The translations under genes were made by a program, and so were the position numbers. Source: a virus. Taken from it: 29,280 nt of DNA. This document shows, piece after piece, positions 1-29,280 of the stretch. The notes beneath the pieces were generated by a model that was not told the DNA's origin, searched no databases, and was given only the letters and a program-made list of their open reading frames with translations. Location of the stretch: IMG/VR virus record IMGVR_UViG_3300045988_140557, positions 1 to 29,280 of that record. One strand, 5' to 3'. Numbering within the stretch: the first letter of the stretch is position 1; every line of letters begins with the position of its first letter.

Positions 1-55
1 AATAAAATCTGAACTAATAATCTCATTCCAAACATAATCTTTTCAAATTGGAGAT
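1..55. repeat. Terminal 55-nt overlap identical to 29226..29280. This is the closure overlap of a circular assembly, not a biological repeat.
   Basis: Read directly: the first 55 nt equal the last 55 nt. A long minus-strand ORF stays in frame across the junction. Confidence 0.9.
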
Positions 56-1245
56 ATATCAGATTTAACTGATTGAGTAATATTAATAGATAAATTAATA
101 ATACTTGAACTATTCTTTATAACAGATACTCCAATAGTTGCTTTTCTGGAAGATAATCCAGAATTTTCCGCAATGTTCAAACTAATAGTTGCTACACCTT
201 GAGAATTTACAGATAACTTCTGTCCACTAATCCAACCTACAGGAATACTAAATACAACATCATCTAAGTTATTAGAACCTGTTCCTATTATATTTAATGT
301 AGATGCAGTTCAACTTACTTCATAATTAGTATTAGGAATCATTAAAGATGTTGCAGATTGTTTAATTGGAACTGTAGCTTCAAGAGTGTAACCTCCAGAA
401 GTTGTTGCAGTAACCATTGCACTAAACTCTAAATTATTAGTAGTTTTATTCTCTGGAACAGTTAATACAAAATAGTTATCAACACTATCCTTTTTAATAT
501 TACTAGCTTGAGGACAGGTAACATTAAATGAGGTAATAGTTTCTTCTGCTTTAGTTGTACTTAAATGAAACTCTTCAGTAACAAAAGCAGCTGCTCCATA
601 AGTTCCAGAAGAAGGAGTTACTACTAATTTTAAATCTTCAGGAATATTACTCTTTTCAATCTTAAAGTTATAAGTAGAACTAATAAATTTATTAGTATCA
701 TAGTAAGCCCCTAATTGGATAGTTGCAGTTAAATCAGTATTTCATTGAGTATTAGCTCTTACTGTAACTTTAAACTTAATAGAGCAAGAATCTCAATCCA
801 GAACTTTCATATTAACTAAAGCTGTAGCATTAACAACTGCTGCATCTCATTTAATAATATCTGATCTATTTAATATATACTCTACTGTATATTCTCCACC
901 AGTATTTGGTACTTTAATGCTGTCATTAGCAGGATAATATCCAGGAGCTTTACTATGTAAATTAATTGGTAAATGTTCCACTAATAAAGCAGTAGTAAGA
1001 CCTCTAGGATACAAATGAAATACAGTAGAAGAATCAGTAGTTATTGTTGTAGGAGATAAAAATTGTATTGTACATCCAGAAGTACTAGGTTCTTGTATAG
1101 TTACATTTAAAGGCCCTTCTTCAGTATAATTAAATCCCCAAGTCCAATAATATTCTCCAGTAATTCCCCATCCAGGATTATTCCATTTAACAGGAAAACT
1201 CCTTGATGCATTATATATTCCTAATTTACTTGGTATAAATGCCAT
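1..1245 (-). CDS. N-terminal part of a 725-aa virion tail/baseplate-type protein. The ORF starts at ATG 1245, runs off position 1 and continues 29225 -> TAA 28293.
   Basis: I checked triplets from 849 down to 1. The only in-frame stops are TGA, at 847, 793, 742, 310 and 43; there is no TAA or TAG. The frame is continuous with 28905..29198 and 28293..28676 through the 55-nt overlap. The sequence is Ser/Thr/Asn-rich and beta-sandwich-like (e.g. ...SSRKATIGVSVIKNSS...). Confidence 0.7.
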
Positions 1246-1247
1246 TT

Positions 1248-1727
1248 TTAAAAGTTTTTAAATACATTATCAACTTGTGTTTCTAAATCTTTTGTTATTG
1301 CATTATCTAATAACATATAAGCATCTAATTCAGTTAATGATTCCTCTAATAGATGCTTGCCTTCAATTCCCCTTCTAGAAATCTTTCTTGCTATTAAATA
1401 TGCTAATTGATCAATAGTTGGAAGTGATCCGTTATATGGACGAGGTAATACAGGTTTAGTTTGTATCCATCTTTTTATATCACTAATAGGAGGAAACTTT
1501 CCTGCATTTCTACCATCCTCAACATACTTCCAATAATCTTGTATTTGCAAACTAACTTCATATACTTCATCTTGATCTTCAACTATATAATTAAGTGTAT
1601 TACCAAGAGTTCCCGTATCATCTGAACCAGTTTGTAGTAATTTCTGCCTATATATAGAAAGTAATTGTTCTCCATATTGTTTTAAGACAGCTTCTAAATT
1701 GGGAAAATCCAAAACTTGATTTGCCAT
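1248..1727 (-). CDS. Head-tail joining / tail-completion protein, HK97 gp10-like (tentative).
   Basis: Intact 159-aa ORF. It has a DTGTLGNTLNY motif resembling the DTGxLrnS signature of gp10-type proteins. It is the first gene of the tail module. TAA stop. Confidence 0.4.
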   Translation of the reverse strand: MANQVLDFPNLEAVLKQYGEQLLSIYRQKLLQTGSDDTGTLGNTLNYIVEDQDEVYEVSLQIQDYWKYVEDGRNAGKFPPISDIKRWIQTKPVLPRPYNGSLPTIDQLAYLIARKISRRGIEGKHLLEESLTELDAYMLLDNAITKDLETQVDNVFKNF

Positions 1728-2653: not shown

Positions 2654-3901
2654 CTATTTAATTTTAATATTATAATGTCCTTTGTTTGTATTTAATGAGT
2701 CATAGGCTAACATTAATGAAATTACTGTATCATCATTAAATCCAGATGGAGCATTATAACTAACATTTCCAGTTTTTGGATTATATGAAGCCTCATATAG
2801 TCTTAACTCATTTAAAAGTTTATCATCTTTTAATAATCCTATCTTTTCATTCTCCAAAGCAGCTTGAAGCTTATTAACTATATCTGCCTTACTCTTATTA
2901 GTAGTTAAGAATCGTATAATTCTGATTTTCGGATTCTTCCGAACTAACATATCATAGAAGACACTACCAATTGAGTTTTGTTCAACTTGTACAATCTTTA
3001 TAAATCCTTGATACTCAGTTAGTATATTTGTTAATAAATCAACTTGCTCTGTTGGAGTTTTATCGTTAAAATACTTTATAAAGACCATTTGCCCAGATTC
3101 ATTTAAAGCAGTAACACAAGTATAGTCTTTACCACTTCCAGTAGCTCAGTCTATTCCTATATAAAGACTCTGATAATCTGGTTTTTTCTCAATTATGCAA
3201 TTAGCTATATTATTAAATAAACAGCCATCATCATCTGCAAATTCCCCTAAGTATTCAGTTCTAAATTTATTTTTTGAGGTTGTAAGTCGATACATCTCTA
3301 ACTTCTCTTTATCTAAAAGCATAGATGTATCTTCTAAAGCCCAATCAAATGATTTATAGAACTTGTCATATTTTGGATCTAACCCTTTAGTAAAGCAGTC
3401 ATAAAAGAAACCCTCTCGGAACCTTGGAGTACTAATAATTAATATTGGAGCAGACCAAACATCAGCTATAGGAGTTAATATTTCAAATACTTCATCCGAT
3501 ATATATGCTGCTTCGTCTATTACTAATAATCCACTTACTGTAAATCCTCGTAATGAATCTTTTTGCTCTGCAGATTTAAATAGTATTTCACTCCCATTAG
3601 TAAACTCTATTTCTAACAATGACTCATTTTTCTTTTTAATAAGATCACATTCTCCAAGAGCTTTTATGATTTCCTTAAATATTTTTCTACTATTAGTTAA
3701 AGTGGGTTCTACTATACAACTAATACTGCCTGGATAATTTATAGAGAATCTTAATAATTCATTTTCTGCCATAAATGACTTTCCACATTGTCTTTTAGCT
3801 TTTACTGTAAATATTTTTCCAGATCTATAAGAGTCATTCATTGCAGTATGTACTTTGTACTGATAAATAAATGGCCTATATCCTTTATATATCCTTGTCA
3901 T
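2654..3901 (-). CDS. terL: Terminase large subunit (415 aa), made of fragments 3146..3901 and 2654..3088 joined through TGA 3146-3148.
   Basis: Walker A (KAKRQCGKS) and Walker B (LLVIDEAA) lie in the N-terminal fragment. Read-through gives GID-W-ATGSGKDYT, which starts an RNaseH-like nuclease domain in the same frame. There is no TAA/TAG in the 3089-3145 gap. TAG stop. Confidence 0.85.
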
Positions 3902-4337
3902 TTATAATGGGGTCTCCAAATTTAAATTGGCATTCATTATTTTGAATATTAACTTGAATTTCTGGTTGATTTAATCCAAACATAGAATTTATTGTTTTAA
4001 TAACTTCAGTAGCAGATCTTACATCATTTTTACTAACAGCAATATCCAATAATGTTTCCAATCTTGTTAATTGTATATGTCTTAAATTCTTTATAAGATT
4101 ATCGTTTTTATCTGCAATAATCTTATAAGCTTCCCTAATATATTTAGCAGCAGTAGTTTGTCCAACTCCATATTTAGTTTGAAGTTCTTCACTTACTTTA
4201 TTTCTAGATCATCCTTTATTAAATAATCTTGCTGCATAAAGATATTTAGTTTTTTGTTCGTCTATTTGATTCTCTTTTACCTCTTCCTTTCTTGGCCTCC
4301 CTGTTTTCTTCGGCAGCTCTTGATCCTTCACTTTCAT
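3885..4337 (-). CDS. terS: Terminase small subunit candidate (150 aa; one TGA at 4209-4211).
   Basis: Not in the ORF track because TGA splits it. Translation: MKVKDQELPKKTGRPRKEE...YLYAARLFNKG-W-SRNKVSEELQTKYGVGQTTAAKYIREAY. This is a basic N-terminus plus a helix-turn-helix. It ends 17 nt inside terL and overlaps the upstream ORF by 92 nt in another frame. Confidence 0.55.
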
Positions 4338-4670: not shown

Positions 4671-5000
4671 TTAATCAATAAGTTTGTATATAACATCTAT
4701 TAGTTTAGTAGATGCATCTTTTAATAATATCATAATATCTTTAATAATTGGAGTCATAAATGCTAATAGTGCAATATATCCAACCATTAAAATTGAAAAT
4801 TGACTTGTAATAAGAATATATATTAATCCAATTCACCAAGTCATACATAAACTGCAATCTAAAGGTTTTAGTCTTCAATCTTCTTTATAAGGCATACCTT
4901 TAAATAGTCTTTTTCAAATACTATGTTTAAAACTATCTAAAGCTCCAGATAAATCAATTATAAAGACTATTATTACTGCTATTATAAATAATTCTAACAT
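4671..5000 (-). CDS. Small integral membrane protein (109 aa) with a CxxC motif. Three TGAs at 4914, 4875 and 4833.
   Basis: Absent from the track. The table-4 translation is MLELFIIAVIIVFIIDL...KPLDCSLCMTW-W-IGLIYILITSQFSILMVGYIALLAF..., giving about 3 hydrophobic helices. TAA stop. Confidence 0.55.
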
Positions 5001-5239
5001 AATCTCTCTCTTATTTGTTTAATAAATCTTTGAATTGTAGTATGACTAATTCCCAATATTCTTCCCACTTCTCTATAACTGCGATATTCAGCATATAATA
5101 TGATTACTGTCTTATCTGCCTTATTAAGCTCAAGTCATTTTGGATATATACTTAATAATCTATCATCCATATTTGTAAACATACTATAGTCTATCTCATA
5201 CTCAGTAAGCAAATCATCAATATTAATCTTCCGTTTCAT
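4994..5239 (-). CDS. Sigma-70 region-4-like HTH protein (81 aa; TGA at 5135-5137).
   Basis: The translation contains ...LNKADKTVIILYAEYRSYREVGRILGISHTTIQRFIKQIRERLC. This resembles the sigma r4 / LuxR-type HTH layout. TAG stop. Confidence 0.45.
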
Positions 5240-5531
5240 TTAATCAATCCTCCAATTCGTCATTTTGTTGTTCAAGTGGTTCTTTAACAATCTCATAATA
5301 TTTCTTATAAGTATAGTAATATCTACTTGTTTTACTAAACCAATAATTCTTAAATAATCTTGTAATCCAAAATTTCAATTCATTTTTGCTATCAAGCTGA
5401 TTTAATTTTGGATTTGATGTTTCCAGAAGGTCTAGTACACACATCTGGAAACAATCATCATCCATTCCAAATTTAAGTTTTAACTCTTGGCAGAAGTCAT
5501 AGTATTTGGTAATAATCTCATTATTTGTCAT
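5223..5531 (-). CDS. Sigma-70 region-2-like protein (95 aa to TGA 5244; 102 aa if TGA is read).
   Basis: DDDCFQMCVLDLL and ELKFWITRLFKNYWFSKTSR resemble the sigma r2.1-r2.4 pattern (xDxxQxxfl ... Wlxxixxnxxxdxxr). It sits directly upstream of the r4-like ORF. Confidence 0.4.
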
Positions 5532-5955
5532 TTGCTATATAGTTACTAAATTCTGTATTTACATCTATCTTGATGGCTTTCTTTAAAGACAACTCTGTTT
5601 TTAATGAATAGCCATAAGTTCCTCCAAAATCTGTTGTAGAACAACCATATTTCATAGAATCCTTTATAAAGGCTTGTTTTATATCTTTAAATATATATAC
5701 TCCATCATCAAATATTATTACTAATATAGAATTATTTCTTGATAGCATATCAAATTTATCCCTATTAATAATAGTGGTTGGATATTTATTAGAATTAAAT
5801 CTTCTCCTTTTAACTTCAATTATATAATCAATTCCATTCCAATTAAATGTTCCATCATATCTGGAATAATCATCTTTACATCATTCTATATCTATATTAA
5901 ATTTCTCTTTAAATAGATTCTTTGTAAAGACTAAGCTTCTTATATCTGTTTTCAT
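5521..5955 (-). CDS. PD-(D/E)xK-like nuclease candidate (144 aa; TGA at 5881-5883).
   Basis: Extending the track ORF 5521..5748 upstream through TGA gives MKTDIRSLVF...IE-W-CKDDYSRYDGTFNWNGIDYIIEVKRRRF..., a D...E-x-K arrangement. The start has a TAATG overlap with the upstream gene. Confidence 0.4.
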
Positions 5956-6194
5956 TATTTTATATTATTAATTTTAAGTGTTAAATCACAATATTCTTCA
6001 TATAAATTAGATACTTCTTCACTTGCTGGATTAACCCACATTACTGAATCTAATTTATGTTTTAATTCTGCTCTTTCTAATCTTAATTCAAATGTTTTAT
6101 GTTGTCTTTCCTGATAGACTTCATTTACTCTAAAACCTGCAATAATTGAAGATGCAATTAAAAGGCCAACTAAAATTTTATTTATTTTTTTCAT
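5955..6194 (-). CDS. Small N-terminally anchored membrane/secreted protein (79 aa). It is the first gene of the minus-strand block.
   Basis: Intact ORF with the hydrophobic N-terminus MKKINKILVGLLIASSIIAGF. Confidence 0.5.
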   Translation of the reverse strand: MKKINKILVGLLIASSIIAGFRVNEVYQERQHKTFELRLERAELKHKLDSVMWVNPASEEVSNLYEEYCDLTLKINNIK

Positions 6195-6239
6195 AATTTT
6201 ATTATTTAATATGTTATTACTTGTTTTATTATTGTACTA

Positions 6240-6271
6240 CAAAGATAATACATTTTTATTCAATTTCCAAA
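6240..6271 (-). promoter_or_regulatory. Promoter for the minus-strand block: TTTG-N20-TATCTTTG.
   Basis: On the minus strand, TTTG is at 6271-6268 and TATCTTTG at 6247-6240, about 45 nt upstream of ATG 6194. It fits the Bacteroidota -33/-7 consensus. It also fits a generic TTGnnn-N17-TATnTT promoter. Confidence 0.55.
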
Positions 6272-6347
6272 TTTTTTAGGTATTATTTTTATTATTTTCA
6301 AAAAAATATTACTATTTGTATTTTTATTATATTTTAATAAAAACAAT

Positions 6348-6833
6348 ATGATTTACATAATTAAATTAACTAAAACGAATTTTATTAAAGTTGGTTACAC
6401 CACTAATATAAGTGGTAGACTAACTGCTTATAAAAACACTATTCCAAATGAAATGATAGAATTTTTTATAGCAAAAGAAGGAACTAGAGATGATGAAAAT
6501 TATTATAGAGATAAATATAGAGCATATAAAACTAAGAGTAATTCAGAATGGTTAAAACTTCCAGATGAATTAATTGTAGAGCTATTATCAGATTTTAAGA
6601 GTGCAAATAATATAAAAATAAATAAACAAAGTAAAAAAGAGTGATATAATGAGAATATAGATAAATTAGTAGAATTGTGTTTATCTGGAGTATCATTAAA
6701 TAGAGCTGCAATTCAATTAAACGCACTAAATTGAGATTGAATAAAATATGCTAATCAAAGATATGAAAAAGAGAATGGTAAAAAATTAACAAAACTTTGG
6801 GTAAGAAAAATAAAGAAAAGTTTTGCAGAATAA
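6348..6833 (+). CDS. T5orf172 (GIY-YIG-superfamily)-like domain fused to a C-terminal HTH (161 aa). The fusion requires reading TGAs at 6642, 6732 and 6738.
   Basis: The N-terminus, IYIIKL..IKVGYTTNISGRLTAY...SEWLKL, fits the T5orf172 pattern. After TGA 6642 the same frame stays open to TAA 6831 and reads NENIDKLVELCLSGVSLNRAAIQLNALN-W-D-W-IKYANQRYEKENGKKLTKLWVRKIKK. Confidence 0.6.
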
Positions 6834-6852
6834 AAATTTATTATTATATTTG
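6822..6852 (+). promoter_or_regulatory. Promoter candidate: TTTG-N19-TATATTTG.
   Basis: TTTG at 6822-6825 and TATATTTG at 6845-6852. It overlaps the end of the T5orf172-HTH gene. Confidence 0.45.
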
Positions 6853-6900
6853 TAGTGTAAAGAAAAAAAATAATTTTTATTAAAAATAATACCTAAATTA

Positions 6901-6932
6901 TTTGGAAGTATAAAAATAATGTTGTATCTTTG
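6901..6932 (+). promoter_or_regulatory. Promoter candidate: TTTG-N20-TATCTTTG.
   Basis: TTTG at 6901-6904 and TATCTTTG at 6925-6932. The -7 box and the following GTAGTA are shared with the 6240 promoter. Confidence 0.5.
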
Positions 6933-6960
6933 TAGTATGAAACTAAAACTAATAATTCTA

Positions 6961-6986
6961 GGCAGGTGAAAATCCTGCCACTTTTT
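6961..6986 (+). terminator. Intrinsic-terminator-like hairpin, GGCAGG tgaaaat CCTGCC followed by ACTTTTT.
   Basis: 6-bp GC stem, 7-nt loop and a T-run. It lies about 30 nt downstream of the 6925 promoter box and 10 nt upstream of element B. Confidence 0.55.
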
Positions 6987-6995
6987 GAATCTTAC

Positions 6996-7045
6996 TGTCA
7001 AGTTTTTTACTCAAATTTAGTAGTAAGAAAATAAAAATATTGACA
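6996..7045 (+). repeat. 50-nt intergenic element, copy B: TGTCAAGTTTTTTACTCAAATTTAGTAGTAAGAAAATAAAAATATTGACA.
   Basis: It carries the 18-nt invariant core and the TGTCA...TGACA termini. Confidence 0.85.
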
Positions 7046-7075
7046 AAAACTTTAACTATTTAAATTATTAAAATT

Positions 7076-8797
7076 ATGAAAACATATTTAAACAATTTGA
7101 TTAATGAGTTGCCAACTAACTGTTTATTTGATAAAGGAAAAGTTGGATGTGGAGGAACTTCAATGGCAATTGAATGTAATAAGCCTTATGTTATTTGTGT
7201 TCCATTTACTAGCTTAGTTGAAAATAAACTTCAACAATATCCAAATGAAAGACGTACTGAGAAGATATTTGGAGTTTATGCTGGAGTTACTATTAAAGAG
7301 ATTAAAGATTACGTAGATAGTGTTAAATGCCCTAAAATTATTGTTACATATAACTCACTTCCAAAAGTTATTTCTGCAGTTAATACTAAAGAATATAGTT
7401 TATTAGTAGATGAATATCATATACTATTTAATCAGTATAGCTTTAGAAAGGATGCTATTAAACCTGTTTTAGAGAACTATAAATTATTTAAAGATTTTAC
7501 ATTTATGACTGCTACTCCTCTTGAAGAAGAGTTTGTATTAGATGAATTAAAAGATTTAGAATTAGTAAAACAAGAATGGGATGATGTTATTGAAACTAAG
7601 GTACAAGCTGTTAAATGTAAGAATGTTGAAGCTTCAACTATTAAATTAATTAATGCTGTTCTTAATAATCAAGTAGAAGGTAATGTTTATATATTTGTAA
7701 ATTCTGTAGACTTTATAAAGAATCTTATTCAGAAAGCTAAACTTACAGAAGAGAATACAAGAGTTATATACTCCAAAAACAATAAAACCAAATTATCAAT
7801 TCACAATTCTACAGTATTAGATGAACCTAAGAAAATAAATTTATTAACTTCTACAGTATTTGAAGGTTCTGATATTTATGATGAAAATGGAAGAATTGTA
7901 GTAGTAAGTGATGCTCAAAAAGCACAAACTCTTCTTGACATCTCAACTTCTATTCAACAGATTGCTGGTAGAATTAGAAATAGTAAATATTTAAACTGGA
8001 TAACTCATCTTTACTCAGCAACAAGATATGCAGATATTAGTTATGAAGACTTTAAAAAGAAGAATATCCAGAATATTGAGGAAACTAAGATTGCTGTAGA
8101 TGCTTACAATGCAATGCCTGAAGTTGCAAGAAAGAAACTTAAGGAATTTACATCCGATACTTATATCCAAGTAAATGATGATTTTACATTTACATTTGAT
8201 CCAAATATGGCTAAGGTAGATATTTTTAACTTTAAAGTGACAAGAGGTTTATATTCTATTAGAACAAATCTTAATAAAGAGTATATAAAGAATGGATTTA
8301 AAAAAGTAGTAGAATGTGAAGACAACTCTATTAAGATTGATTTTGAATCTGATAATAAACCATTTAAAGAACTAATTAAAGAAGTTAGAGCAGAATGGGA
8401 AAATAAATTTAAATTGAATACTCCACTCTTAAATGATGCTATTATTAAATATCCTTGGCTGCCAGAAGCTATTAGTAAATTAGGATTCGAAAAGATGGCA
8501 AGTTTAAAATATTGCATTTCTGATATTAAAGATGCTCTATTAAAGAAATCAAATAAAAGTGCAGATAACAAAGCAGCTAAGAAGTTAAATCAATCAATTA
8601 CTCTTGGAATGTGGTATTCTAACGCTGATATTAAAAAGTTTGTTAAAGAAGCTTATGAAATTAGTGATATTACTATTACTCCAAAAGCAACAGAAATTGA
8701 TAAATATTATGAAGTTAAAAAATGCCAGAAAAGAGTAAATGGTAAACAAACTGAAGGTTATGTAATTATTAATAAAAAGTTTGTATTTAATAAATAA
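7076..8797 (+). CDS. Superfamily-2 helicase (573 aa), the likely replication/recombination protein.
   Basis: Motif I-like GKVGCGGTS, motif II LLVDEYH (DExH), motif III MTATP and motif VI QQIAGRIRN. Intact under any code, with 5 TGG and 0 TGA. Confidence 0.6.
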   Translation: MKTYLNNLINELPTNCLFDKGKVGCGGTSMAIECNKPYVICVPFTSLVENKLQQYPNERRTEKIFGVYAGVTIKEIKDYVDSVKCPKIIVTYNSLPKVISAVNTKEYSLLVDEYHILFNQYSFRKDAIKPVLENYKLFKDFTFMTATPLEEEFVLDELKDLELVKQEWDDVIETKVQAVKCKNVEASTIKLINAVLNNQVEGNVYIFVNSVDFIKNLIQKAKLTEENTRVIYSKNNKTKLSIHNSTVLDEPKKINLLTSTVFEGSDIYDENGRIVVVSDAQKAQTLLDISTSIQQIAGRIRNSKYLNWITHLYSATRYADISYEDFKKKNIQNIEETKIAVDAYNAMPEVARKKLKEFTSDTYIQVNDDFTFTFDPNMAKVDIFNFKVTRGLYSIRTNLNKEYIKNGFKKVVECEDNSIKIDFESDNKPFKELIKEVRAEWENKFKLNTPLLNDAIIKYPWLPEAISKLGFEKMASLKYCISDIKDALLKKSNKSADNKAAKKLNQSITLGMWYSNADIKKFVKEAYEISDITITPKATEIDKYYEVKKCQKRVNGKQTEGYVIINKKFVFNK

Positions 8798-8811
8798 AAA
8801 TATTATATTTG
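8780..8811 (+). promoter_or_regulatory. Promoter candidate: TTTG-N20-TATATTTG, ending 5 nt before ATG 8816.
   Basis: TTTG at 8780-8783 and TATATTTG at 8804-8811. The mRNA would have a very short leader or none. Confidence 0.45.
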
Positions 8812-8815
8812 TGAT

Positions 8816-9094
8816 ATGGAAGGCGATATTAAAGAAACAATTAAACAAACAGAAGAGTATATTAAAGAATTGGATAAATGAATACTTGAGTGTAAAGAAG
8901 CTACTAAAAGATTTGGAGATATTATAGACAAAGTATTAAAAGATAAAGATTATTTATTTCTAAATTTGATTAATTATGGATGATTTATTAAAAAAGCTTG
9001 AAGAACTGGAATACATAATAGTTCAATTAAACGAACTGAAGGGAGGTTTAGTTTGGGAAGAAGTAGAAGAAATGCCAAAACCAGAAATTACTAA
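8816..9094 (+). CDS. Small ORF with an uncertain end: 21 aa under table 11, 55 aa if TGA 8981 terminates, 92 aa under strict table 4.
   Basis: MEGDIKETIKQTEEYIKELDK-TGA-ILECKEATKRFGDIIDKVLKDKDYLFLNLINYG-TGA-... The part beyond 8981 overlaps the next ORF out of frame and looks non-coding (rich in R/S). Confidence 0.3.
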
Positions 9095-9113
9095 TGCAAC
9101 ATATACTGATTAA
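8976..9113 (+). CDS. Small acidic coiled-coil ORF (45 aa).
   Basis: MDDLLKKLEELEYIIVQLNELKGGLVWEEVEEMPKPEITNATYTD. TAA stop. The start lies in an ATGGATGA overlap with the previous ORF. Confidence 0.4.
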   Translation: MDDLLKKLEELEYIIVQLNELKGGLVWEEVEEMPKPEITNATYTD

Positions 9114-9114
9114 T

Positions 9115-9258
9115 ATGAAATACCAAACCTATAAAGTATGCATAAATGGAGTGTATTATGTATATGTAATACCAGAAAATAGTAGGTTTTTAGTGGACTT
9201 ACAAACAGGAGATTTAATACCTAAAGAAGATGATAAATTATTTGAAATGATGGAATAA
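9115..9258 (+). CDS. Small ORF (47 aa).
   Basis: MKYQTYKVCINGVYYVYVIPENSRFLVDLQTGDLIPKEDDKLFEMME. TAA stop, followed by a terminator. Confidence 0.35.
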   Translation: MKYQTYKVCINGVYYVYVIPENSRFLVDLQTGDLIPKEDDKLFEMME

Positions 9259-9262
9259 ATGA

Positions 9263-9290
9263 AAATAGGAGGGTTTATGCCCTCCTATTT
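9263..9290. terminator. Bidirectional terminator hairpin at the convergence of the plus and minus blocks.
   Basis: 11-bp stem AAATAGGAGGG / CCCTCCTATTT with a 6-nt loop and A/T runs on both sides. The HNH stop codon lies inside it. Confidence 0.7.
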
Positions 9291-9608
9291 CTGTTTAAAT
9301 CTTTGATAATTACTAACCGATGAATGAATAGCTTTATGACAAACTGAACATAATGTTATTAAATCTTCCAAATGTTCCTGCTCATTATATAAATTCTCAT
9401 ACGTCTTATGATGTACCGATAAAGACCTATTTCCGCCTTCCTGAACGCATCAATTACAAGTTTGGCAGTGGTAGTTATCCCGCAATAATATTTGCTCTCT
9501 AATGGCCTTAAAATCCTTTGATCTTATATATCTTTGGTACTTTAAATATTCTTCACTTCTTACTTTCTTCTTTGTCTTATGAAGCAGTTTACTTGATTTG
9601 GAGTCCAT
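9285..9608 (-). CDS. HNH endonuclease (107 aa; TGA at 9450-9452).
   Basis: Absent from the track. Translation: ...NYHCQTCN-W-CVQEGGNRSLSVHHKTYENLYNEQEHLEDLITLCSVCHKAIH. This gives CxxC ... HH ... CxxCH. TAG stop. Confidence 0.8.
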
Positions 9609-9610
9609 AA

Positions 9611-10063
9611 TTATATAATTGTAAATTTCTGTCTTCTCTGCAAACCCTCTTTATTCTTCAATCCTAAATGAATTCAACTAGCTATTCCATTTCTAGGTTT
9701 CTCATAAATAAGTTGATCAAAATCATACTTTTCAATAGCTTCAGTAATCCAAACCTGAAATTCTTTCATTTGACCATTACTTGGAATTATATCTGCTGCA
9801 TATCCTGTTAGATGGGCAGATGTCAAAGATCCTCTTACAGCTTTATTAAGCTCATTACATCTATAACCTGAATTCACACTTATTGCTGGATTTCCCAACC
9901 GATTAACATCACAATACTCTGCCCAATCACTTCTTAATGGGTCTAAAAGTTTCTCGACTAACTCTATAAGGTGTTCAGTAATCTCTTTATTTGGAGTATT
10001 ATCTATCTTCTTAATAGAAGCTGTATCAGATCTTGTTAATTCACTAATAGTAAAATATTTCAT
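9611..10063 (-). CDS. Endolysin, peptidase M15 (VanY / L-Ala-D-Glu peptidase-like), 150 aa. The track ORF 9674..10063 is extended through TGA 9674.
   Basis: SGYRCNELNKAVRGSLTSAHLTGYAADI matches the M15 SxHxxGxAxD motif. Read-through adds ...NGIAS-W-IHLGLKNKE..., which supplies the C-terminal W-x-H region. TAA stop at 9611. Confidence 0.8.
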
Positions 10064-10224
10064 TATTTAATAATATCTTTAAGCATAGTATAACGGTAAA
10101 ATAAATGACATCCAGCACCAAGTGCTATGAGTACTAATGTAATCCAAAATGGAATTACTTTTACCATTAAAAATACTAAGATTATAATTACTATTGCTAT
10201 TAAATATTTTATCCAATATTTCAT
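10063..10224 (-). CDS. Holin-like protein with two transmembrane helices (53 aa).
   Basis: MKYWIKYLIAIVIIILVFLMVKVIPFWITLVLIALGAGCHLFYRYTMLKDIIK. TAATG overlap with the endolysin start. Confidence 0.55.
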   Translation of the reverse strand: MKYWIKYLIAIVIIILVFLMVKVIPFWITLVLIALGAGCHLFYRYTMLKDIIK

Positions 10225-10227
10225 AAC

Positions 10228-11306: not shown

Positions 11307-11307
11307 C

Positions 11308-16195: not shown

Positions 16196-16196
16196 A

Positions 16197-18284: not shown

Positions 18285-18297
18285 AATATATTATTTA

Positions 18298-19527: not shown

Positions 19528-19580
19528 ATTATTTTTCTATAAAATATAAATTATTCATTATGTGGTATATAAACAAAATA

Positions 19581-19608
19581 AGGGGCAAGTAAATTAATAC
19601 TCGCCCCT
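19581..19608 (-). terminator. Rho-independent terminator after the capsid-tube operon.
   Basis: On the minus strand, GGGGCGAGT ... ACTTGCCCC (one mismatch) is followed by TTATTTTGTTT. It lies 11 nt after the stop of 19619..20143. Confidence 0.65.
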
Positions 19609-19618
19609 CTTTCTGTTA

Positions 19619-20143
19619 TTAAGCACCTACAACGCTTTGGATAGCTTCTGCAGATAACTCATAAGGATAAGAATCTGAATCTGTTGAAAGTGTCAGAGTA
19701 TAAGCATTCTGATCACCTTTAGCAGTACCAGTAACACCCGTACCAGCGGAAGCGCTTACATAATCATCTTTACCTAAGAACCAATACTTACCATTGCTGT
19801 CTTCAACAACAACTGCAAGCTGACCAATTGATAAAGCTGCAATCTCTACTCGTTTTGCGGTTTCCATCTTTGTAAATACAAGAGCAAGCTCATTACTTAC
19901 ATAATTAACACCCGCACTTTCATCTACATTTAAAGTTGAGGTTAGAGAACCAGTAGCCTTTCTAAATTGGTAGTTATACCATTTAGCTGAAGTCTCAAGA
20001 GTAATAGCTGAAATCATATTGCTATCAGGATCAACCGTTACACTCTTAACATCTGCATACTGAGTAATCCAGACCTGTTTGATACCACCCAATGAAGGTT
20101 GGCAATCAAGTGTGATTCCTGCGATAGTTATTAAACAAGCCAT
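19619..20143 (-). CDS. Major tail (tube) protein candidate (174 aa); a capsid accessory protein is the alternative.
   Basis: Intact ORF with no TGA and elevated G+C like the capsid gene. It lies directly after the MCP and before a strong terminator. It has a beta-rich composition. Confidence 0.4.
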   Translation of the reverse strand: MACLITIAGITLDCQPSLGGIKQVWITQYADVKSVTVDPDSNMISAITLETSAKWYNYQFRKATGSLTSTLNVDESAGVNYVSNELALVFTKMETAKRVEIAALSIGQLAVVVEDSNGKYWFLGKDDYVSASAGTGVTGTAKGDQNAYTLTLSTDSDSYPYELSAEAIQSVVGA

Positions 20144-20183
20144 AATTTCAATATCATTTAGAAGTTAATAAAATCTATTGAAA

Positions 20184-21089
20184 TTAAGCCTTGGCACCTA
20201 ATACTACTTCATCAGGGAAAGCAACTTGTACACCAGCGTTAAATTCAATAGCTAATCTGAACTCGCGGAAATCCTGTGAATACCACAATTCGAATTTCTC
20301 TTCGTCGTTCATCATATCTACACCATAGAAGAAGTTCTTGTCTAACTGACCAGCAACAATCTTATCAGTTCCATTAAGACCATTAACAGCAATAACTTTA
20401 ACCTGCGAACCAGGAAGATAAATCTCACCATCAAGGCTCTCTCCGCTATAGTGGAAATAATTCTTCTCAACAAGTTCATTTACGAACTTACGGAACATAT
20501 CGGCACCAACAAGAATAGAAGCGCCATCAAGAACCTTCTCAGGAATTGCATTATAAACTGCCATAATGTCAGTATAAGCAGATGCTCCAGCAATTGCTAC
20601 ATCTACAGTGCCAGCATCAGCAGCAAGAATCTTAAGCAGACCGTCAAAATACTTCAAGTTATTAGTAGCTGAAGTCGTATCACCCTGCCAGATAGCTACC
20701 TCAATAGCCTCTTTTACATTCTCTACAACAGCATTTACGAAATCCTCTTCAAAAGGAAGCGTCTTCTGACCAGCGGCTACCTTAACTGCATACTGAGTCC
20801 AGTATTTCAGCATAGCCTTATCGCAATATGCCATATTAATCTTAATATTACCAGTCTTAAGAATTCTCTGCGAAAGAGTCTGAGTTCCAGCCTCATCCCA
20901 ACCACAAGTAAGACCATCACCGAACTGCATATCGGTAGATAACAGGTTAAGAGCAGCATCAGTTTTAATATCTGTCTGAAGATTGAACAAACTTGCACTC
21001 TTAGCTTTTAAAACAGCTTCCTTAATAAGAGGGAGACGTCTTTGCTCCACATAAGCAGGAAGCGTTGCCATTACAGGACTATTTGCCAT
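20184..21089 (-). CDS. Major capsid protein, HK97-fold type (301 aa).
   Basis: It follows the protease and scaffold genes. It has the highest G+C in the window. It has no TGA and four TGG. Confidence 0.7.
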   Translation of the reverse strand: MANSPVMATLPAYVEQRRLPLIKEAVLKAKSASLFNLQTDIKTDAALNLLSTDMQFGDGLTCGWDEAGTQTLSQRILKTGNIKINMAYCDKAMLKYWTQYAVKVAAGQKTLPFEEDFVNAVVENVKEAIEVAIWQGDTTSATNNLKYFDGLLKILAADAGTVDVAIAGASAYTDIMAVYNAIPEKVLDGASILVGADMFRKFVNELVEKNYFHYSGESLDGEIYLPGSQVKVIAVNGLNGTDKIVAGQLDKNFFYGVDMMNDEEKFELWYSQDFREFRLAIEFNAGVQVAFPDEVVLGAKA

Positions 21090-21110
21090 AATTATTTAAA
21101 ATTTTATAAA

Positions 21111-21716
21111 TTAACCAATAAAGTTTTTAAGCTTTCTATCTATTTCTGCTATCCCACTCATAGGAGCAGTTGTTTTATTTTCAAGTGTTTCCTCTGCTGA
21201 AAAAGCAGCACTCATCTTACTCATTTTTTCTACAGTCTTTTCAGTAGCTTCTGATTTTCCTTCAAGTTCTGCTACTTTCTTAACAAGCTTATCTACAATA
21301 TCGTAAAGCTCATTAATTTCGCGATGAATAGCGTCGATTGCATCAGTCTCAGTTTCTTTAACACCGTCTGTTTCAACAGCAGGATCAGCAACTTCCTCAG
21401 CTTTTACTTTCTTAGTTCCACAAGCAGCATCAACCTCAACAGTTCTCATACCCTCTTCTGGATCAACTTCAGCTTTAGGATCAGTAATGGATTCTACTTT
21501 ACCGTCTTTAACAACAATCGTTTTGCCATCCTCGGTAACATACTCACCATCAGCAGCAGGTGCATATTCGCCATTTTCATCAGCTACATAAACATCCATA
21601 CCTTCTCTCAGATCCTCATCTGAATCCCAAGTAAGCACAGCCTTGTCAGTTTTAACATCACTGAACTTTGCAAGCATCTTAGCTAACTCAAGTTTAATTT
21701 TTGTGAATTTACTCAT
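21111..21716 (-). CDS. Scaffolding protein (201 aa).
   Basis: Highly acidic, Glu/Lys/Ala-rich helical protein lying between the protease and the MCP. Confidence 0.6.
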   Translation of the reverse strand: MSKFTKIKLELAKMLAKFSDVKTDKAVLTWDSDEDLREGMDVYVADENGEYAPAADGEYVTEDGKTIVVKDGKVESITDPKAEVDPEEGMRTVEVDAACGTKKVKAEEVADPAVETDGVKETETDAIDAIHREINELYDIVDKLVKKVAELEGKSEATEKTVEKMSKMSAAFSAEETLENKTTAPMSGIAEIDRKLKNFIG

Positions 21717-21722
21717 AATTAA

Positions 21723-22316
21723 TTAATGTTTAACTCTTTTTATTTTTCTCAACATTTTTTGAATCTCTTTAAGTTCCTCATATTCATCAGACTGTCTTTC
21801 TAAAGTGAACAATCCCTCAATAGAGAATCCTTTAAACTTGCCAGCTTTAATTGCATCCCATATAACAGGATTATTTACTTTATAAGTAGCAAATAATGAA
21901 CCATCTGGACAATCAGCAAATTCAACTGGATTAATTCCTCTATCTATATCTTTAATATATAGCTCTTGAAGAATTATTCCAGGAATTACTGAATCTTCTA
22001 AATGTTCAATATTTACATCAGTAGTTCTCTTATCATACATCATTTTTTCAGCCATTAAACGGAGAGTTTCTTTATCATATTGAATATAATATTCTCCGTT
22101 TTTACTATCCCGTCTAAATATAGGTATATCACATACCATTAAACAAGAGGTAACTATATGTTTTTCTTCATCCATCGAGAACTTCTGAGATTCCCCAAAA
22201 GCAAGCCAATTAACTTGGGTTGCAGGTTTACTGGTCAATGCTACAAACTCTATTCCATCACAATCATCAGCAATAATTGCTTGATATAATGGAAGATCAT
22301 TATACATTTTTTCCAT
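21723..22316 (-). CDS. Prohead protease candidate, XkdF-like (197 aa).
   Basis: It is the first gene of the head module, immediately upstream of the scaffold gene. The N-terminal pattern LPLYQAII...GIEFVALTSKPA resembles XkdF-type proteins. Confidence 0.45.
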   Translation of the reverse strand: MEKMYNDLPLYQAIIADDCDGIEFVALTSKPATQVNWLAFGESQKFSMDEEKHIVTSCLMVCDIPIFRRDSKNGEYYIQYDKETLRLMAEKMMYDKRTTDVNIEHLEDSVIPGIILQELYIKDIDRGINPVEFADCPDGSLFATYKVNNPVIWDAIKAGKFKGFSIEGLFTLERQSDEYEELKEIQKMLRKIKRVKH

Positions 22317-22495: not shown

Positions 22496-22513
22496 AGAAA
22501 TTTTACTCACTTT
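22492..22513 (+). repeat. Partial element copy E (TGTCAGAAATTTTACTCACTTT) overlapping the tape-measure stop codon.
   Basis: 18 of 22 nt match the 5' end of the element consensus. Confidence 0.7.
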
Positions 22514-24845
22514 AGAAACTTGCATTTGATTCTGTAACTGCAACTTTAGTTTGAGCGTTAGTAATATCACTCTCAACTACATAACATTTAACAGGTTGAT
22601 TCAATTCATCAGTCTCTTTATTGCCAAGTAAGTTTCGAGTATATTCTACAGGAGCAGTATTTAAAGCAGCAGGAGCAGTAGTTCCTGCATCACTTCCAGA
22701 ACCACCCGATGAAGGTAATTGTTCATTTTGGATAGCCTTAACATTAGCAATACCAGCTATAACAGCTGTAGCAGCTGCAATAGGAGCAAGAATAGGACCT
22801 ACAAAAGGTATACCTACCATAGCTTTATATGCACCTTGAGCAGAACTGATAGTATCAATAATAGCTTGAGTAGTAGCTAATGCTTTATAAACTTTAAATG
22901 ATTTCTCTCTTTGCTTCTCTGATTTTGAATCATCACTGGCTTCTTGTTTAAATACATTAGCTAAAGCTCCACTTAAAGAAGAAGCCACATTCATAGTTGC
23001 TTGAATAGCTTGTTGTTTTTTAGCTTGTCTATCTTTAAATGCTTGAAGATCTGCTTCTTCTCTTGCATTAGCAGCTTCTGATAAAGCTATATCATTAGCT
23101 TCTTGCTGTAATTTAATTGCTTGAGATTGATTAGCATATTCTTGTTCAGTTATCAGTTTATTATTATATTGCTCATCTAAGATAGCTTGCTGTTGAGACA
23201 TCAATTCATTCTCTCTTGTAATTCTTTCTTTAGTGAGATTATATAACTGTTCATTATAAGCTAATGTATCTTGATATTGTCTTTGAACATCTTCTCCAGA
23301 TTGATAGAAATCAGTTGAACCAAATTGTTGAACTCTAGTTTCGTAACTTCCAGATTTACCTGCAGATAATGCAGCCTCTTTATTTGCAAATAATTGAGAT
23401 TCCCTATCCTGCATTTCTTGTAATGCAGACAATCTATTTTCTAAGTCTTCCCTATAACGTTCATTATTATTATCTAGTCACTCTTTATTATATGCATCAT
23501 TTACCTGCTTTAATCTCTCATTATATTCTTTAACTGTTATTAATTTGAGATTGTAGGCTTCTTTAAGTGCATCTAATTGATTCTGGTAGTTTCTATTTAA
23601 TTCATCAAGTTCTCTTGCTTCATCATCTAAAAGAAGCTTCCTATTTTCTTCATAGAAATCGTTAATAACTTTAAGCAGATCTTGATTATGTTTCTTTCTA
23701 TCTTCTATATTCTTTAGATACTGAGCTTTAGCATCTTCTCTCTGCTTACGTTCTGCAGCAATCTCCATTAACTTAACTTTTTCATAAGCTTCAGCAGATT
23801 TTTGCATCAAATCATTACGTTTCTCAAGATAAGTATTATAAATACCAGAAGCTTCATCATAAGCTGCTTTTTGATCATCATTTAACTTACTTAAAAAGAA
23901 ATCAACTTCATTAGAACTATTCTTTAATCCTCATTGTATGGCTTCGGAATAATCTTCCCAAGTTTCATATCCAGATTTCTTAAATTCTTTTTTGAAGTAT
24001 TTATTACTTTTAAGTATATTAGTAAATGAGTCAGAATATGCTTTAGTTACACTACCAAATTGTTGAAATAATTCAGCATCTAAATCTCCTAATGCTTCAG
24101 CATAATCTTTCCAAATTTGTATTTCACTTTTTTTACCAGCAGCTAAATCTCTCTCTCTTTGTCTCTCTAATCCTGCAATTTCAGTATTAGCTCTGGCATA
24201 GCTTGTTCCTCATTGATCAGTTATATCTTTTAAACCAGAAATACTAATTTTTAAATCATCAATTCCTGATGCTGCTTTAATTGCAAAATCTATTAGCATA
24301 CCAAGAGCTACAACTAAAGCCCCAATTCCTGTAGATATAATTGCAGACCGTAGCACACCCATTGCTACAGATAATCCTCCAGTTGCAGCCGTAGCACCAC
24401 CCATTGCTACAGATAAGGCTTTAAATGATTTTACTCCATTAAGAATACCTTCACCTAAACCTTTTAATCCTCCTATTCCTTGTACTATGGCAATTGCTGC
24501 TTGCAATTTAACCATAGTTTTTTGAAGATTCTCTGTATCTTTTCCAAATAAAGTAAATGCTGCACTAACAGCTGAAACTCCTCCAGCTAAACCTCCTGCT
24601 ACTTGATTGATACTGTCAAACGCCTTAACTGCATTTACAGTTTTACCTTGCATAGATTCTGTAGCAACACCTAACTTATTTTGAACATTAACAAGTTCTT
24701 CAAGCTTTTTAGTATAGTCAGTACTACCAATCTCAAGATCTTCAAGTTCAGCCGTCAAGCCAGCTACTTCTTCTCGTAGCTGCTTGATCGACTTTGAACT
24801 AGTTTTAGTATCTATACTAATTACTTTTTTAATTTCTTCAGCCAT
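22512..24845 (-). CDS. Tape measure protein (777 aa), made of fragments 24210..24845, 23478..23810 and 22512..23432 joined through TGAs 24210, 23931 and 23478.
   Basis: All fragments share one frame and I checked the gaps triplet by triplet. It has long coiled-coil segments. It also has Gly/Ala-rich hydrophobic blocks (GGLAGGVSAVSAAF, GGATAATGGLSVAMG, VGPILAPIAAATAVIAGIANV). Confidence 0.7.
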
Positions 24846-27800: not shown

Positions 27801-28290
27801 AATTCATTTCAGTATCAGCAGGAAGAGCATTTCCAGCTTCATCAGTTACAAAGTATTGTAAATCAGCAAGAGTCCTAATAGTACCATCTTCTTTATATTT
27901 AAGCCCATAAAAGAAATCTCCTAATCCTCCATATAAAGTAATATTATAAGTAATAACAGCTTGTTTTATAGATATACTATTTAATTGCATATATCCAGAT
28001 TCAACTAAATATCCATTATTATAAATTCCAAAATCAACTCGTTTGGAAGGATCAAAATATACTCCAGAGAAATTACCTTCTTTTATATGGAGAAATCTAT
28101 CTAACTTATAAATCTCTCCAAAAATCTTATTATTATTCTTTGTGCCAGGTATAGAAATCGTCTTACTAAACGAGTTCTTGACTATAGTGGGGTTTTGGAA
28201 ATCCTCAACAGTATATGTCATAGGAAGACTAATTCCCTCACTACAGTCAACCTCTTTATTTGCAATAAATAGTTTAATATTCTTTCTCAT
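24847..28290 (-). CDS. Giant tail/baseplate (host-interaction) protein, 1147 aa, with an Ig/BACON-like segment near the C-terminus. Five track fragments are joined through six TGAs.
   Basis: The TGAs are at 27409, 26353, 26011, 25861, 25693 and 25279; all are in one frame and I verified the gaps. The junctions read sensibly (NPY-W-NKAF, DKK-W-YTMS, TEW-W-DVPG, INY-W-ITDD, SSS-W-DFGV). The segment ...VTSNIPWELG-W-YSPNEIVSITPESGQPGETELTVTYNEN...R resembles a BACON/Ig-like module. Confidence 0.65.
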
Positions 28291-28292
28291 AA

Positions 28293-29280
28293 TTATTTAC
28301 GATAAGTATCTTGAGAAGCTTCTACATTAATTGTATAATAGAACTTGTTTTTACCTTGATTAGTATAAGTTTTATATTCACAATTTGTATCTGTAATTAA
28401 TACTGGAGTGATAGTATTATCTTTAAGATTATGCAAATATACTTTAGTACTCTCAATTAAATTAAACATCTTAAAAGCTTGAATATCATTTAAATAACCA
28501 GTATAAAGAATCCAGCTTGAAGTTATAGTATTTAAATACTTATTCCTTGCAAATTCTTGAGATGTATTTAATACTTTGCGAGTATATGTTTCAGATTTAA
28601 TTTCATCAGTCTTTCTAACATTACCCTCAACAAGTAATGAATCCCATCCTCCTGCTGAATTAGTATAATATAACACATAATCTTTACCTGTGGTATCTAT
28701 ATCATATCTAATCTGTCTATCACTAATATTTCCGTCTTCTACAAATCCTACTATTAAATAGCTCCCACAAGGCCATAGTTTATTGCTTAAATCTTCTGTA
28801 TATGTATATCCATTAATTCCAGAATTTAAACTAATATCTATAGCAGTTGATGTTCCATCTACATAAAAAAATCTATTAACAACTCCCGTTCCAGTTGGTA
28901 AAATTCAACTTGCTACTAAATATTGTCTTGGATCAACTAAACCAGTAATAGGATCACTTAACATAGTACCTTTAGTCAAATCTCTATCTTTATAACTCCA
29001 GTCATTGAAGAAAGTAATTGGTTTTTCATTTCCACTAGATGTTATCAAAGTAAATGGTTTCAAATATTCTGGAGATATTATAGTTTTTGAAGTATTAAAT
29101 ATAATCCCATTAGATAGATAATTTTCAGCAACATTATTTAATAAAAACTCTACTCTATCAGTTTCAGGATATTTATAAGCTTTTCCAGCATAGACCATAT
29201 CCCCTGCATAATCTAAATGATATTCAATAAAATCTGAACTAATAATCTCATTCCAAACATAATCTTTTCAAATTGGAGAT
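28293..29280 (-). CDS. C-terminal part of the 725-aa tail/baseplate-type protein that starts at 1245 (positions 29226-29280 duplicate 1-55).
   Basis: Fragments 28905..29198 and 28293..28676 share one frame. They are joined through TGA 28905 and an open 28677-28904 stretch. TAA stop at 28293. Confidence 0.7.
29226..29280. repeat. Second copy of the 55-nt terminal overlap (duplicates positions 1..55).
   Basis: Exact identity to 1..55. Confidence 0.9.

Follow-up and report, generated by a model that had tools for sequence, protein, structure and literature searches.

TGA as a tryptophan codon in a closed 29-kb phage genome without tRNA genes

Genome Organization and Gene Content

The phage genome analyzed here is held in IMG/VR record IMGVR_UViG_3300045988_140557, a DNA of 29,280 nucleotides that was studied over its full length and is referred to below as the window. 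Under the standard genetic code, its genes fall into fragments, and an earlier examination of the letters and their open reading frames (ORFs), hereafter the sequence-only reading, had proposed that TGA is used genome-wide as a sense codon, most likely for tryptophan (Trp, translation table 4). Comparison with related phages bears out the assignment: the columns aligned with TGA hold Trp, and homology continues past the TGA codons. Sense use is thus upheld but not its genome-wide extent, as TGA occurs in 19 of the 33 genes (58%) and is missing from 14.

The window has a GC content of 29.5%. Its first 55 bases match its last 55 exactly, and the genome is therefore circular and complete, at 29,225 bp; the ORFs at both window ends belong to one gene of 725 amino acids (aa) that crosses the junction. 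With TAA and TAG as the sole stops, 33 genes cover 95% of the genome, 30 of them on the minus strand. Gene starts were set at the first ATG, ORFs were bounded by TAA or TAG, and the names ‘TerS’, ‘holin-like’, and ‘scaffold’ are labels taken from position or composition. Public gene calls for the same contig (ENA ERZ1689618 NODE_371_length_29280) list products of 725, 1147, and 777 aa; therefore, those calls took TGA as sense. The features on which the reading of TGA turns are as follows.

1-29225: complete circular phage genome with 33 genes; 55-bp end match, 95% coding
29226-29280: duplicate of bases 1-55, an assembly overlap or a direct terminal repeat, which marks circularity
1-1245, minus strand: N-terminal 415 codons of the 725-aa tail or baseplate-like gene; TGAs at 847-849, 793-795, 742-744, 310-312, and 43-45
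28293-29225, minus strand: C-terminal part of the 725-aa gene; TGA at 28905-28907, TAA stop, public call of 725 aa
2654-3901, minus strand: terminase large subunit (TerL), 415 aa; TGA at 3146-3148, which is codon 252 (GID-W-ATGSGKDY)
3885-4337, minus strand: putative small terminase (TerS), 150 aa, named by position only; TGA at 4209-4211
4671-5000, minus strand: small membrane protein, 109 aa, holin-like by its hydrophobic segments; TGAs at 4914-4916, 4875-4877, and 4833-4835
9285-9608, minus strand: HNH endonuclease, 107 aa; TGA at 9450-9452 (CQTCN-W-C); Pfam HNH match at residues 51-96, E=4e-5
9611-10063, minus strand: peptidase M15 cell-wall hydrolase (endolysin), 150 aa; Pfam Peptidase_M15_3; TGA at 9674-9676, which is codon 130
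10228-10881, minus strand: membrane protein adjoining the endolysin, 217 aa; four TGAs
11991-13073, minus strand: portal protein, 360 aa; Pfam Phage_portal; TGA at 12963-12965, which is codon 37
22512-24845, minus strand: tape measure protein (TMP), 777 aa; TGAs at 24210-24212, 23931-23933, and 23478-23480; public call of 777 aa
24847-28290, minus strand: tail protein, 1147 aa, 13 TGG; six TGAs at 27409, 26353, 26011, 25861, 25693, and 25279; public call of 1147 aa

TGA Is a Sense Codon Aligned with Tryptophan

All 21 positions at which the sequence-only reading had placed breaks between gene fragments are in-frame minus-strand TGA codons (tca on the plus strand). Its expectation that reading TGA as sense lengthens the ORFs was confirmed: counting ORFs of at least 100 aa, the covered share of the window rises from 79% to 94%, and the longest ORF grows from 577 to 1149 aa, compared with 81.5% coverage and an unchanged 577 aa in a control that took TAG as sense. 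Our gene set contains 43 TGA and 67 TGG codons, in line with the ~43 and ~70 tallied before by hand, and its 33 genes end with 29 TAA, four TAG, and, as had been claimed, no TGA. That the genes hold no in-frame TAA or TAG follows by construction, the ORFs being delimited there; off-frame, the same genes contain 383 (+1) and 735 (+2) TAA and 298 (+1) and 201 (+2) TAG triplets. We take TGA as sense because the ORFs bounded by TAA and TAG follow one another without breaks along the genome and agree with known protein families over their whole length.

Several proteins become whole in this way. The TMP and the tail protein attain the 777 and 1147 aa that had been foreseen, although their three and six TGAs separate four and seven fragments, not the three and five first counted. 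In TerL, the ATPase and nuclease halves are joined as proposed, with Pfam Terminase_6N (37-231) and Terminase_6C (248-401) flanking the codon-252 TGA; the full-length protein has tblastn matches to TerL, and alignments with nuclease-domain structures in the PDB continue across the TGA. Reading through codon 37 restores the portal N-terminus. The His/Cys ligands of the HNH endonuclease had been placed downstream of a TGA, and the Pfam HNH match indeed spans it (codon 53); similarly, the region of the M15 endolysin beyond codon 130 had been deemed essential, and this codon lies two residues before an invariant histidine, His132. Among the genes said to be revealed by recoding, the HNH endonuclease is supported by Pfam, whereas a ‘TerS’ and a ‘nuclease’ are named by position only, with no match in Pfam, PHROGs, or NCBIfam.

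The identity of the encoded residue was read from two groups of relatives. The first comprises 16 IMG/VR loci with ~81–95% nucleotide identity to the window over aligned regions. Opposite the TGA codons of the window, these close relatives have TGA in 310 cells, TGG in 99, TAT in 12, GAA in one, and GGN in none, and, in the reverse direction, relatives’ TGA faces window TGG in 86 cells; as the relatives are phylogenetically non-independent, such cell counts overstate the number of events, and column-based tests were preferred where possible. Codon 252 of TerL is TGG in all 16 relatives, the TGA of the putative small terminase is TGG in 15 of the 16, and TGA codons of the 725-aa gene also swap with TGG. 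The second group consists of distant relatives that gain nothing under table 4, some with 61–62% GC, searched by tblastn with an X in place of each TGA, which keeps the query from biasing the residue found. In these standard-code relatives, the conserved TGA positions hold aromatic residues: 10 have W and seven have Y at portal codon 37, five have W and one has Y at codon 646 of the tail protein, and three have W at codon 401 of the 725-aa gene; at variable TGA positions, the relatives have L, I, F, or K. Codon 130 of the M15 peptidase is W in 27 of 27 homologs, down to 44% identity. Within the window itself, a C-terminal motif repeated among paralogs occurs in two TGA forms, LTEEQKSLAASKN-TGA-TL and LTEDQKAQIVSKG-TGA-TI, and in one TGG form, LTEEQKAVAAGKN-TGG-IL. 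Taken together, these four independent lines of alignment evidence show TGA to be a sense codon for Trp, not glycine (Gly), in genes written in genetic code 4.

Reassignment of TGA to Gly (table 25), as in phages of Absconditabacteria/Gracilibacteria, has a negligible probability: three isolated Gly residues in the X-masked alignments, at poorly aligned or variable positions, speak for it, against 0 GGN versus 99 TGG cells in the close relatives and W or Y at the conserved TGA columns. The idea that the TGAs are real stops, marking pseudogenes, assembly errors, sporadic programmed readthrough, or selenocysteine, has nothing in its favor beyond the fragmentation of ORFs under the standard code and is dismissed with equal firmness, as all 43 interruptions are TGA and never TAA or TAG, the codons are kept, or replaced by TGG, in dozens of assemblies made independently, homology and catalytic residues run on downstream, the base following in-frame TGA has no context bias, and no selenocysteine insertion sequence (SECIS)-like or other Rfam match was found. 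Table 25, pseudogenes, sequencing errors, and sporadic readthrough are thus excluded by the lines of evidence for Trp. The three outcomes that would have told against code 4 were looked for, and the opposite was found in each case: density and length do increase, homology runs on, and the columns are not Gly.

The repeated motif, LTE(E/D)QK...(K/G)(N/G)W(T/I)(L/I), is common to the fiber-like paralogs at 13606-14592, 15278-16195, and 18298-19527, the third of which also carries DUF285/BspA-type leucine-rich repeats. Public databases contain many versions of the 150-aa M15 peptidase that are truncated to 127–129 aa because the gene call stopped at the in-frame TGA (clusters P0145-P0163, P0173-P0185, and others); some go by ‘YcbK (DUF882)’ and some by ‘putative chitinase’.

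TGA Use Is Graded by Gene

The distribution of TGA among genes is uneven, and the following features complete the map.

4994-5239, minus strand: sigma-70 region-4-like helix-turn-helix (HTH) protein, 81 aa; TGA at 5135-5137
6348-6833, plus strand: 161-aa protein, PHROGs phrog_4284, 5032, and 8130; three TGAs, at 6642, 6732, and 6738
7076-8797, plus strand: superfamily 2 (SF2) helicase with a C-terminal extension, 573 aa; five TGG, no TGA
13606-18284, minus strand: tail-fiber region; Phage_tail_C match
13606-14592 (three TGAs), 15278-16195 (two), and 16197-18284 (one), minus strand: fiber genes with TGA
14594-15031 and 15034-15270, minus strand: small TGA-free genes inside the fiber region
18298-22316, minus strand: TGA-free block with 12 TGG and no TGA; fiber, 174-aa structural, major capsid, scaffold-like, and XkdF-type prohead protease genes
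20184-21089, minus strand: major capsid protein (MCP); PHROGs phrog_11320 and phrog_1623; a 93%-identical protein in nr is named ‘Major capsid protein’

The TGA-free block, which has Pfam matches to DUF285/LRR_5 (a BspA/DUF285-like fiber protein) and Peptidase_S78_2 (the protease), differs from the rest of the window with a Fisher p=1e-4. Across the family, the TGA share of Trp codons is 0/155 in the capsid, 0/25 in the scaffold, 1/114 in the 174-aa protein, and 0/49 in the helicase; it is 9% in the portal, 12% in the protease, and 33% in TerL, and reaches 43% in the tape measure, 45% in the tail protein, 55% in the membrane protein at 10228-10881, 74% in the small membrane protein at 4671-5000, and 80–88% in the fibers at 13606-14592 and 16197-18284, with 26% in the fiber gene at 15278-16195. 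In the window, the helicase is TGA-free and lysis, tail, and fiber genes are recoded, yet capsid, scaffold, and protease are also TGA-free and small regulators are recoded.

Selection was separated from slow evolution by comparing TGG-to-TGA changes with synonymous G-to-A changes at Lys, Glu, and Gln (K/E/Q) codons of the same genes. In the MCP, 174-aa, scaffold, portal, and helicase genes, four of 16 Trp columns are polymorphic, compared with 80 of 124 K/E/Q columns (Fisher p=0.005); by cells, TGG-to-TGA stands at ~1% against 16–32% for K/E/Q, a ~10-fold suppression. For the helicase alone, TGA makes up 2% of 176 cells, against 28% for G-to-A at K/E/Q. In the tail, TMP, TerL, and 10228-10881 genes, the rates are equal (Trp 15/19, K/E/Q 83/111 columns). 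Because Trp columns are less polymorphic than K/E/Q columns in the capsid group and helicase, the comparison shows, as far as substitution patterns in sequences go, that selection acts against TGA in the helicase and in the virion proteins of highest abundance, whereas TGA behaves neutrally in the tail, TMP, TerL, and 10228-10881 genes.

The capsid gene and its neighbor at 19619-20143 form a codon-usage island. The third-position GC content (GC3) of the capsid gene is 0.32, with 29% of its Lys, Glu, and Gln codons ending in A, as against a GC3 of ~0.14 and 71% elsewhere in the genome. The island is followed by a strong terminator-like hairpin at 19580-19609.

Other Gene Products and Lifestyle

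The 573-aa helicase has an AlphaFold model with a predicted local distance difference test (pLDDT) score of 82, and Foldseek matches it to DEAD-box helicases and the HSV-1 origin-binding protein (E ~1e-8). Judging by this predicted fold, the protein is likely a replication initiator. The same gene, the one large non-structural gene free of TGA, was considered as a code-switch factor and rejected, since its predicted fold is that of an SF2 helicase with no translation-related likeness.

Two small overlapping genes, encoding 102 and 81 aa, occupy 4994-5531, and the second is sigma-70 region 4-like: it matches NCBIfam sigma70-ECF at E=1.2e-5, under the curated cutoff, and its orthologs in relatives match Pfam Sigma70_r4_2/HTH_50. 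By these profile matches, the pair might constitute a split or minimal phage sigma factor. As for promoters, neither the Bacteroides -7 motif TAnnTTTG (35 found, 45 expected) nor sigma-70-like sites (104 found, 120 expected) are enriched. Residues 986-1042 of the tail protein give a weak, sub-threshold match to viral BACON domains. PHROGs and NCBIfam returned no function for most small genes.

No integrase was found among the window genes, and the top 120 MCP homologs, with 87–96% identity, all lie on contigs of at most 33 kb; for these reasons, the phage looks virulent, or at least non-integrating. Megablast of 25 kb against GenBank phages gave no match, and the relatives retrieved by TerL tblastn all have at most 29% identity. 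In the collinear relatives L127, L129, L130, and L132, homing endonucleases of the GIY-YIG and NUMOD types are inserted at varying sites close to or between the genes for the portal, DUF6712, and M15 proteins; the window instead has the HNH gene at 9285-9608.

The Genome Carries No Decoder for UGA

Neither ARAGORN nor Rfam found a tRNA gene in the closed genome, and none was found in ~110 related loci scanned. A hidden suppressor tRNA was also sought: Rfam at E<=1 returned two chance matches, and a relaxed ARAGORN search gave noise within coding sequence. No gene matches the release factor or tryptophanyl-tRNA synthetase (TrpRS) families in Pfam, PHROGs, or NCBIfam. Lacking genes for a tRNA, a release factor, and TrpRS, the closed genome must rely on the infected cell or on some other element for UGA decoding. 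That a complete recoded genome carries no tRNA for TGA is the unusual trait of this phage. Borges et al. detected suppressor tRNAs in 35% of code-4 phages (bioRxiv 10.1101/2021.08.26.457843), and surveys of gut phages place them in ~35% of TGA-recoded and 13–40% of TAG-recoded genomes, many of which are incomplete.

Candidate Hosts

Shine–Dalgarno (SD)-like motifs precede two of the 33 genes (6%), compared with 36–73% in the Mycoplasma phages P1, MAV1, and phiMFV1, and SD sites are lacking as well in the relatives of the window and in the large recoded phages described below. SD-independent initiation is typical of Bacteroidota. The window also has a conserved, intact M15 peptidoglycan hydrolase gene, and Mycoplasmatales are devoid of a cell wall. 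In the window, TGA makes up 39% of Trp codons against an A-ending share of 71%.

Homologs of the helicase, with 45–48% identity, adjoin integrases that combine Arm-DNA-bind_5 and Phage_int_SAM_5, an architecture we take to be of the Bacteroidota type. The contigs that carry them have genes for BACON, DPP-IV, and OmpA-like proteins, a GC content of ~52%, no SD sites, and host genes that end in TGA. One case is a TAG-recoded prophage at ~5900-21740 of a 132-kb contig (L147, ENA ERZ28598220 scaffold_71), with a coverage of 0.95 under code 15 against 0.54 under the standard code. This prophage adjoins standard-code host genes, including those for glutamine synthetase and TerC, and its integrase and helicase homolog (45% identical to that of the window) contain no in-frame TAG.

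The family is well represented: 57 related IMG/VR loci, mostly from a human fecal co-assembly, and 4068 MCP homologs at E<=1e-20 from all sources. To our knowledge, code-4 bacteria are rare in the human gut. Recent GTDB-scale surveys list code 4 only for Mycoplasmatales, some Patescibacteria, a few endosymbionts, and two genera of Eggerthellaceae found in mammalian stool (equids, primates, and elephants); such screens name none among Bacteroidota or the taxa common in the human gut.

We consider a host with the standard code probable and a code-4 host rather unlikely. On such genomic signatures, all of them indirect, the host would most likely be an SD-independent, peptidoglycan-bearing, standard-code gut bacterium belonging to the Bacteroidota.

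A Model of UGA Suppression in trans and Its Alternatives

The reading we favor, with a probability of roughly 0.6, is that of an uncultured tailed phage of human stool, written in code 4, that infects a standard-code host and has UGA suppression supplied in trans. In this model, the proteins could be sorted into two groups. (i) The helicase and head proteins would be made at once by the unmodified standard-code host. (ii) Suppression would be needed for the portal (one TGA), terminase (one), TerS-like protein (one), tape measure (three), and tail protein (six), and likewise for the fibers, the endolysin (one), and the two membrane proteins (three and four). Since these proteins would require suppression, packaging, tail assembly, and lysis could be gated or throttled by its level.

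The suppressing agent acting in trans could be of three kinds. (i) The host may possess a variant of tRNA-Trp(CCA) whose anticodon stem measures 4 bp: tRNAs of this type read UGA in E. coli tests, and Bacteroides oleiciplenus holds both the 4-bp and the normal 5-bp stem variants (PMC13092985). (ii) A small phage protein might disable release factor 2 (RF2). (iii) A suppressor tRNA might come from a resident or co-infecting element, for example, the recoded phages found on 85–168-kb contigs.

Several observations weigh against this model. A cell with active RF2 would hardly yield a six-UGA protein unless the suppressor is efficient; because such an efficient suppressor is needed, the standard-code-host model misses a component, and a host-matched code stays alive as a rival. 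The lack of TGA in the capsid gene is partly due to its preference for G-ending codons, as its A-ending share is 0.29, against 0.74 in the helicase and 0.71 genome-wide. Small regulatory genes likewise contain TGAs, as do both plus-strand neighbors of the helicase gene; a clean standard-code ‘early’ module is absent. A direct link to a host, in the form of a spacer match, a prophage junction, or a taxonomic assignment, was not found. When GTDB genomes were scanned with the MCP, two phage-sized contigs with 47–49% identity turned up, one distant relative in a Bacteroidaceae bin of metagenome-assembled genomes (MAGs) and another in an alphaproteobacterial MAG bin; as these are different phyla, the scan is uninformative on the host. 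The case for Bacteroidota consists of one mosaic gene (45–48% identity), the absence of SD motifs, the sub-threshold BACON match, and that one MAG bin.

The alternative that survives best is a host that natively reads UGA as Trp through tRNA-Trp(UCA) and lacks RF2, such as a member of Mycoplasmatales, a code-4 Eggerthellaceae, or a Patescibacteria lineage, with the phage mirroring its code. Such a host would account for a complete genome without tRNA, release factor, or TrpRS, for TGAs in every functional module, including regulators and terminase, and for the total lack of TGA stops; it is also the most parsimonious route to proteins with three to six UGAs, and the phages on 85–168-kb contigs that share a fiber domain with the window use TGA neutrally, at 66–77% against 75%. 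Nevertheless, we hold a host-matched code to be unlikely, as the TGA share of the window is far under the neutral expectation and under that of Mycoplasma phages, and TGA is excluded selectively from abundant virion proteins and the helicase. Moreover, the conserved peptidoglycan hydrolase speaks against wall-less hosts, SD motifs are far scarcer than in Mycoplasma phages and nearly absent, human stool assemblies contain many relatives, no lineage common in the human gut figures in the lists of known code-4 bacteria, and the helicase homologs reside in standard-code hosts that read as Bacteroidota-like.

A further possibility, which we regard as improbable, is that a standard-code, Bacteroidota-like host decodes UGA efficiently by a non-canonical or borrowed route, through one of the three agents named above, from a source not described before for phages. 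If this were true, the exclusion of TGA from high-copy virion proteins would reflect costly, sub-stoichiometric suppression that tunes late-gene output.

Very improbable, in our judgment, is the related scenario that the small phage takes the suppressor tRNA of a co-infecting or resident recoded phage and depends on this partner for its late genes. The partners in question would be large phages represented by 14 IMG/VR contigs of 85–168 kb (L133–L146, e.g., IMGVR_UViG_3300029720_000001; also positions 1-9119 of L116/L141), which have ~32–33% GC and are heavily TGA-recoded, with a coverage of 0.60–0.71 under the standard code against 0.93–0.98 under table 4 and a TGA share of 66–77%, close to their A-ending share of 75%. 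A fiber domain (residues 471-661 of the 16197-18284 product) is common to both phage types with 72–88% identity, both co-assemble into chimeric contigs, and both are TGA-recoded and without SD sites. Against this, no tRNA was found in the readable 21-kb pieces of the large phages, most of whose genomes were unseen, obligate dependence on a co-infecting partner has no known precedent among phages that possess a full structural module, and a common fiber domain shows only gene exchange or a shared host.

One contig of 148.6 kb (IMGVR_UViG_3300045988_175865; L046, L080, L116, L141) joins a relative of the window to one of the large recoded phages. Because the junction falls inside the common fiber domain, the contig looks like a co-assembly chimera, not a prophage or an integration, and its flank was rejected as host DNA, being a different, large TGA-recoded phage. 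A relative of the window also lies on a 193-kb ENA scaffold, LIJU14-1...scaffold_39 (L127).

Evolutionary Setting and Significance

All relatives with at least 88% capsid identity gain coverage under table 4, and one with 71% identity is also recoded. At 66% capsid identity, a 30-kb genome with 28% GC and the same gene order (L056, IMGVR_UViG_3300029905_000019) contains hardly any in-frame TGA, and none of the genes on its coding strand stops at TGA; the codon is effectively unused there, which could represent a pre-recoding state. The standard code is found in relatives farther away, whose GC content spans 32% to 62%. The recoded clade thus sits within a wider group of standard-code and TGA-depleted phages, a pattern that Borges et al. 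proposed as a route to recoding (bioRxiv 10.1101/2021.08.26.457843).

Annotation of this genome must use code 4. Closed, tiny, tRNA-less, and well represented in human stool assemblies, it offers a compact test case for how recoded phages without a tRNA have their stop codon read, and the family speaks to a further question, whether genes for packaging, tail, and lysis are gated by recoding while those for capsid and replication remain readable to an unmodified host.

Comparison with Known Recoded Phages

Recoding of this kind is already documented, and the public calls for this contig already use code 4. Ivanova et al. (2014) reported TGA-to-Trp and TAG-to-Gln recoding in gut phages, which Borges et al. 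went on to survey; screening for recoding is routine in the Dutch cohort studies and in the Metagenomic Gut Virus catalogue (MGV), and proteomic support has been published for TAG recoding. If the host does use the standard code, the phage would group with the gut phages of alternative code described in Ivanova 2014 and Borges 2022.

A close parallel is with the code-4 phages of those two studies (e.g., the Jade and Agate clades and some crAss-like phages). Like them, the window represents a low-GC gut phage with in-frame TGA aligned to Trp, recoded genes for lysis and tail, a replication gene in the standard code, and TGA-free close relatives; its 58% of recoded genes lies inside the 26–71% given for recoded phages of standard-code hosts (bioRxiv 10.1101/2021.08.26.457843). 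It differs in being only 29 kb, closed, and without a suppressor tRNA, release factor 1 (RF1), or TrpRS, and in having a TGA-free capsid and scaffold and TGAs in small regulators.

The Mycoplasma phages P1, MAV1, and phiMFV1 resemble it in reading TGA as Trp, in using only TAA and TAG as stops, in having no phage tRNA, and in their low GC content. However, TGA accounts for 77–95% of their Trp codons, which matches their A-ending bias, and occurs in 82–93% of their genes, compared with 39% and 58% in the window; they have SD-like motifs at 36–73% of genes and no annotated cell-wall hydrolase, in contrast to the 6% and the M15 endolysin seen here.

Small TAG-recoded (code 15) prophages such as Garnet and Topaz, found in standard-code Prevotella or Oscillospiraceae (Borges et al.), are of a similar size class and likewise keep integrase or replication genes free of recoded stops; they reassign a different stop codon and are temperate, whereas no integrase was found in the window. 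The code 25 phages of Absconditabacteria likewise have in-frame TGA throughout and no TGA stops, but in them TGA stands for Gly and occurs in ~90% of genes, whereas the columns of the window are Trp.

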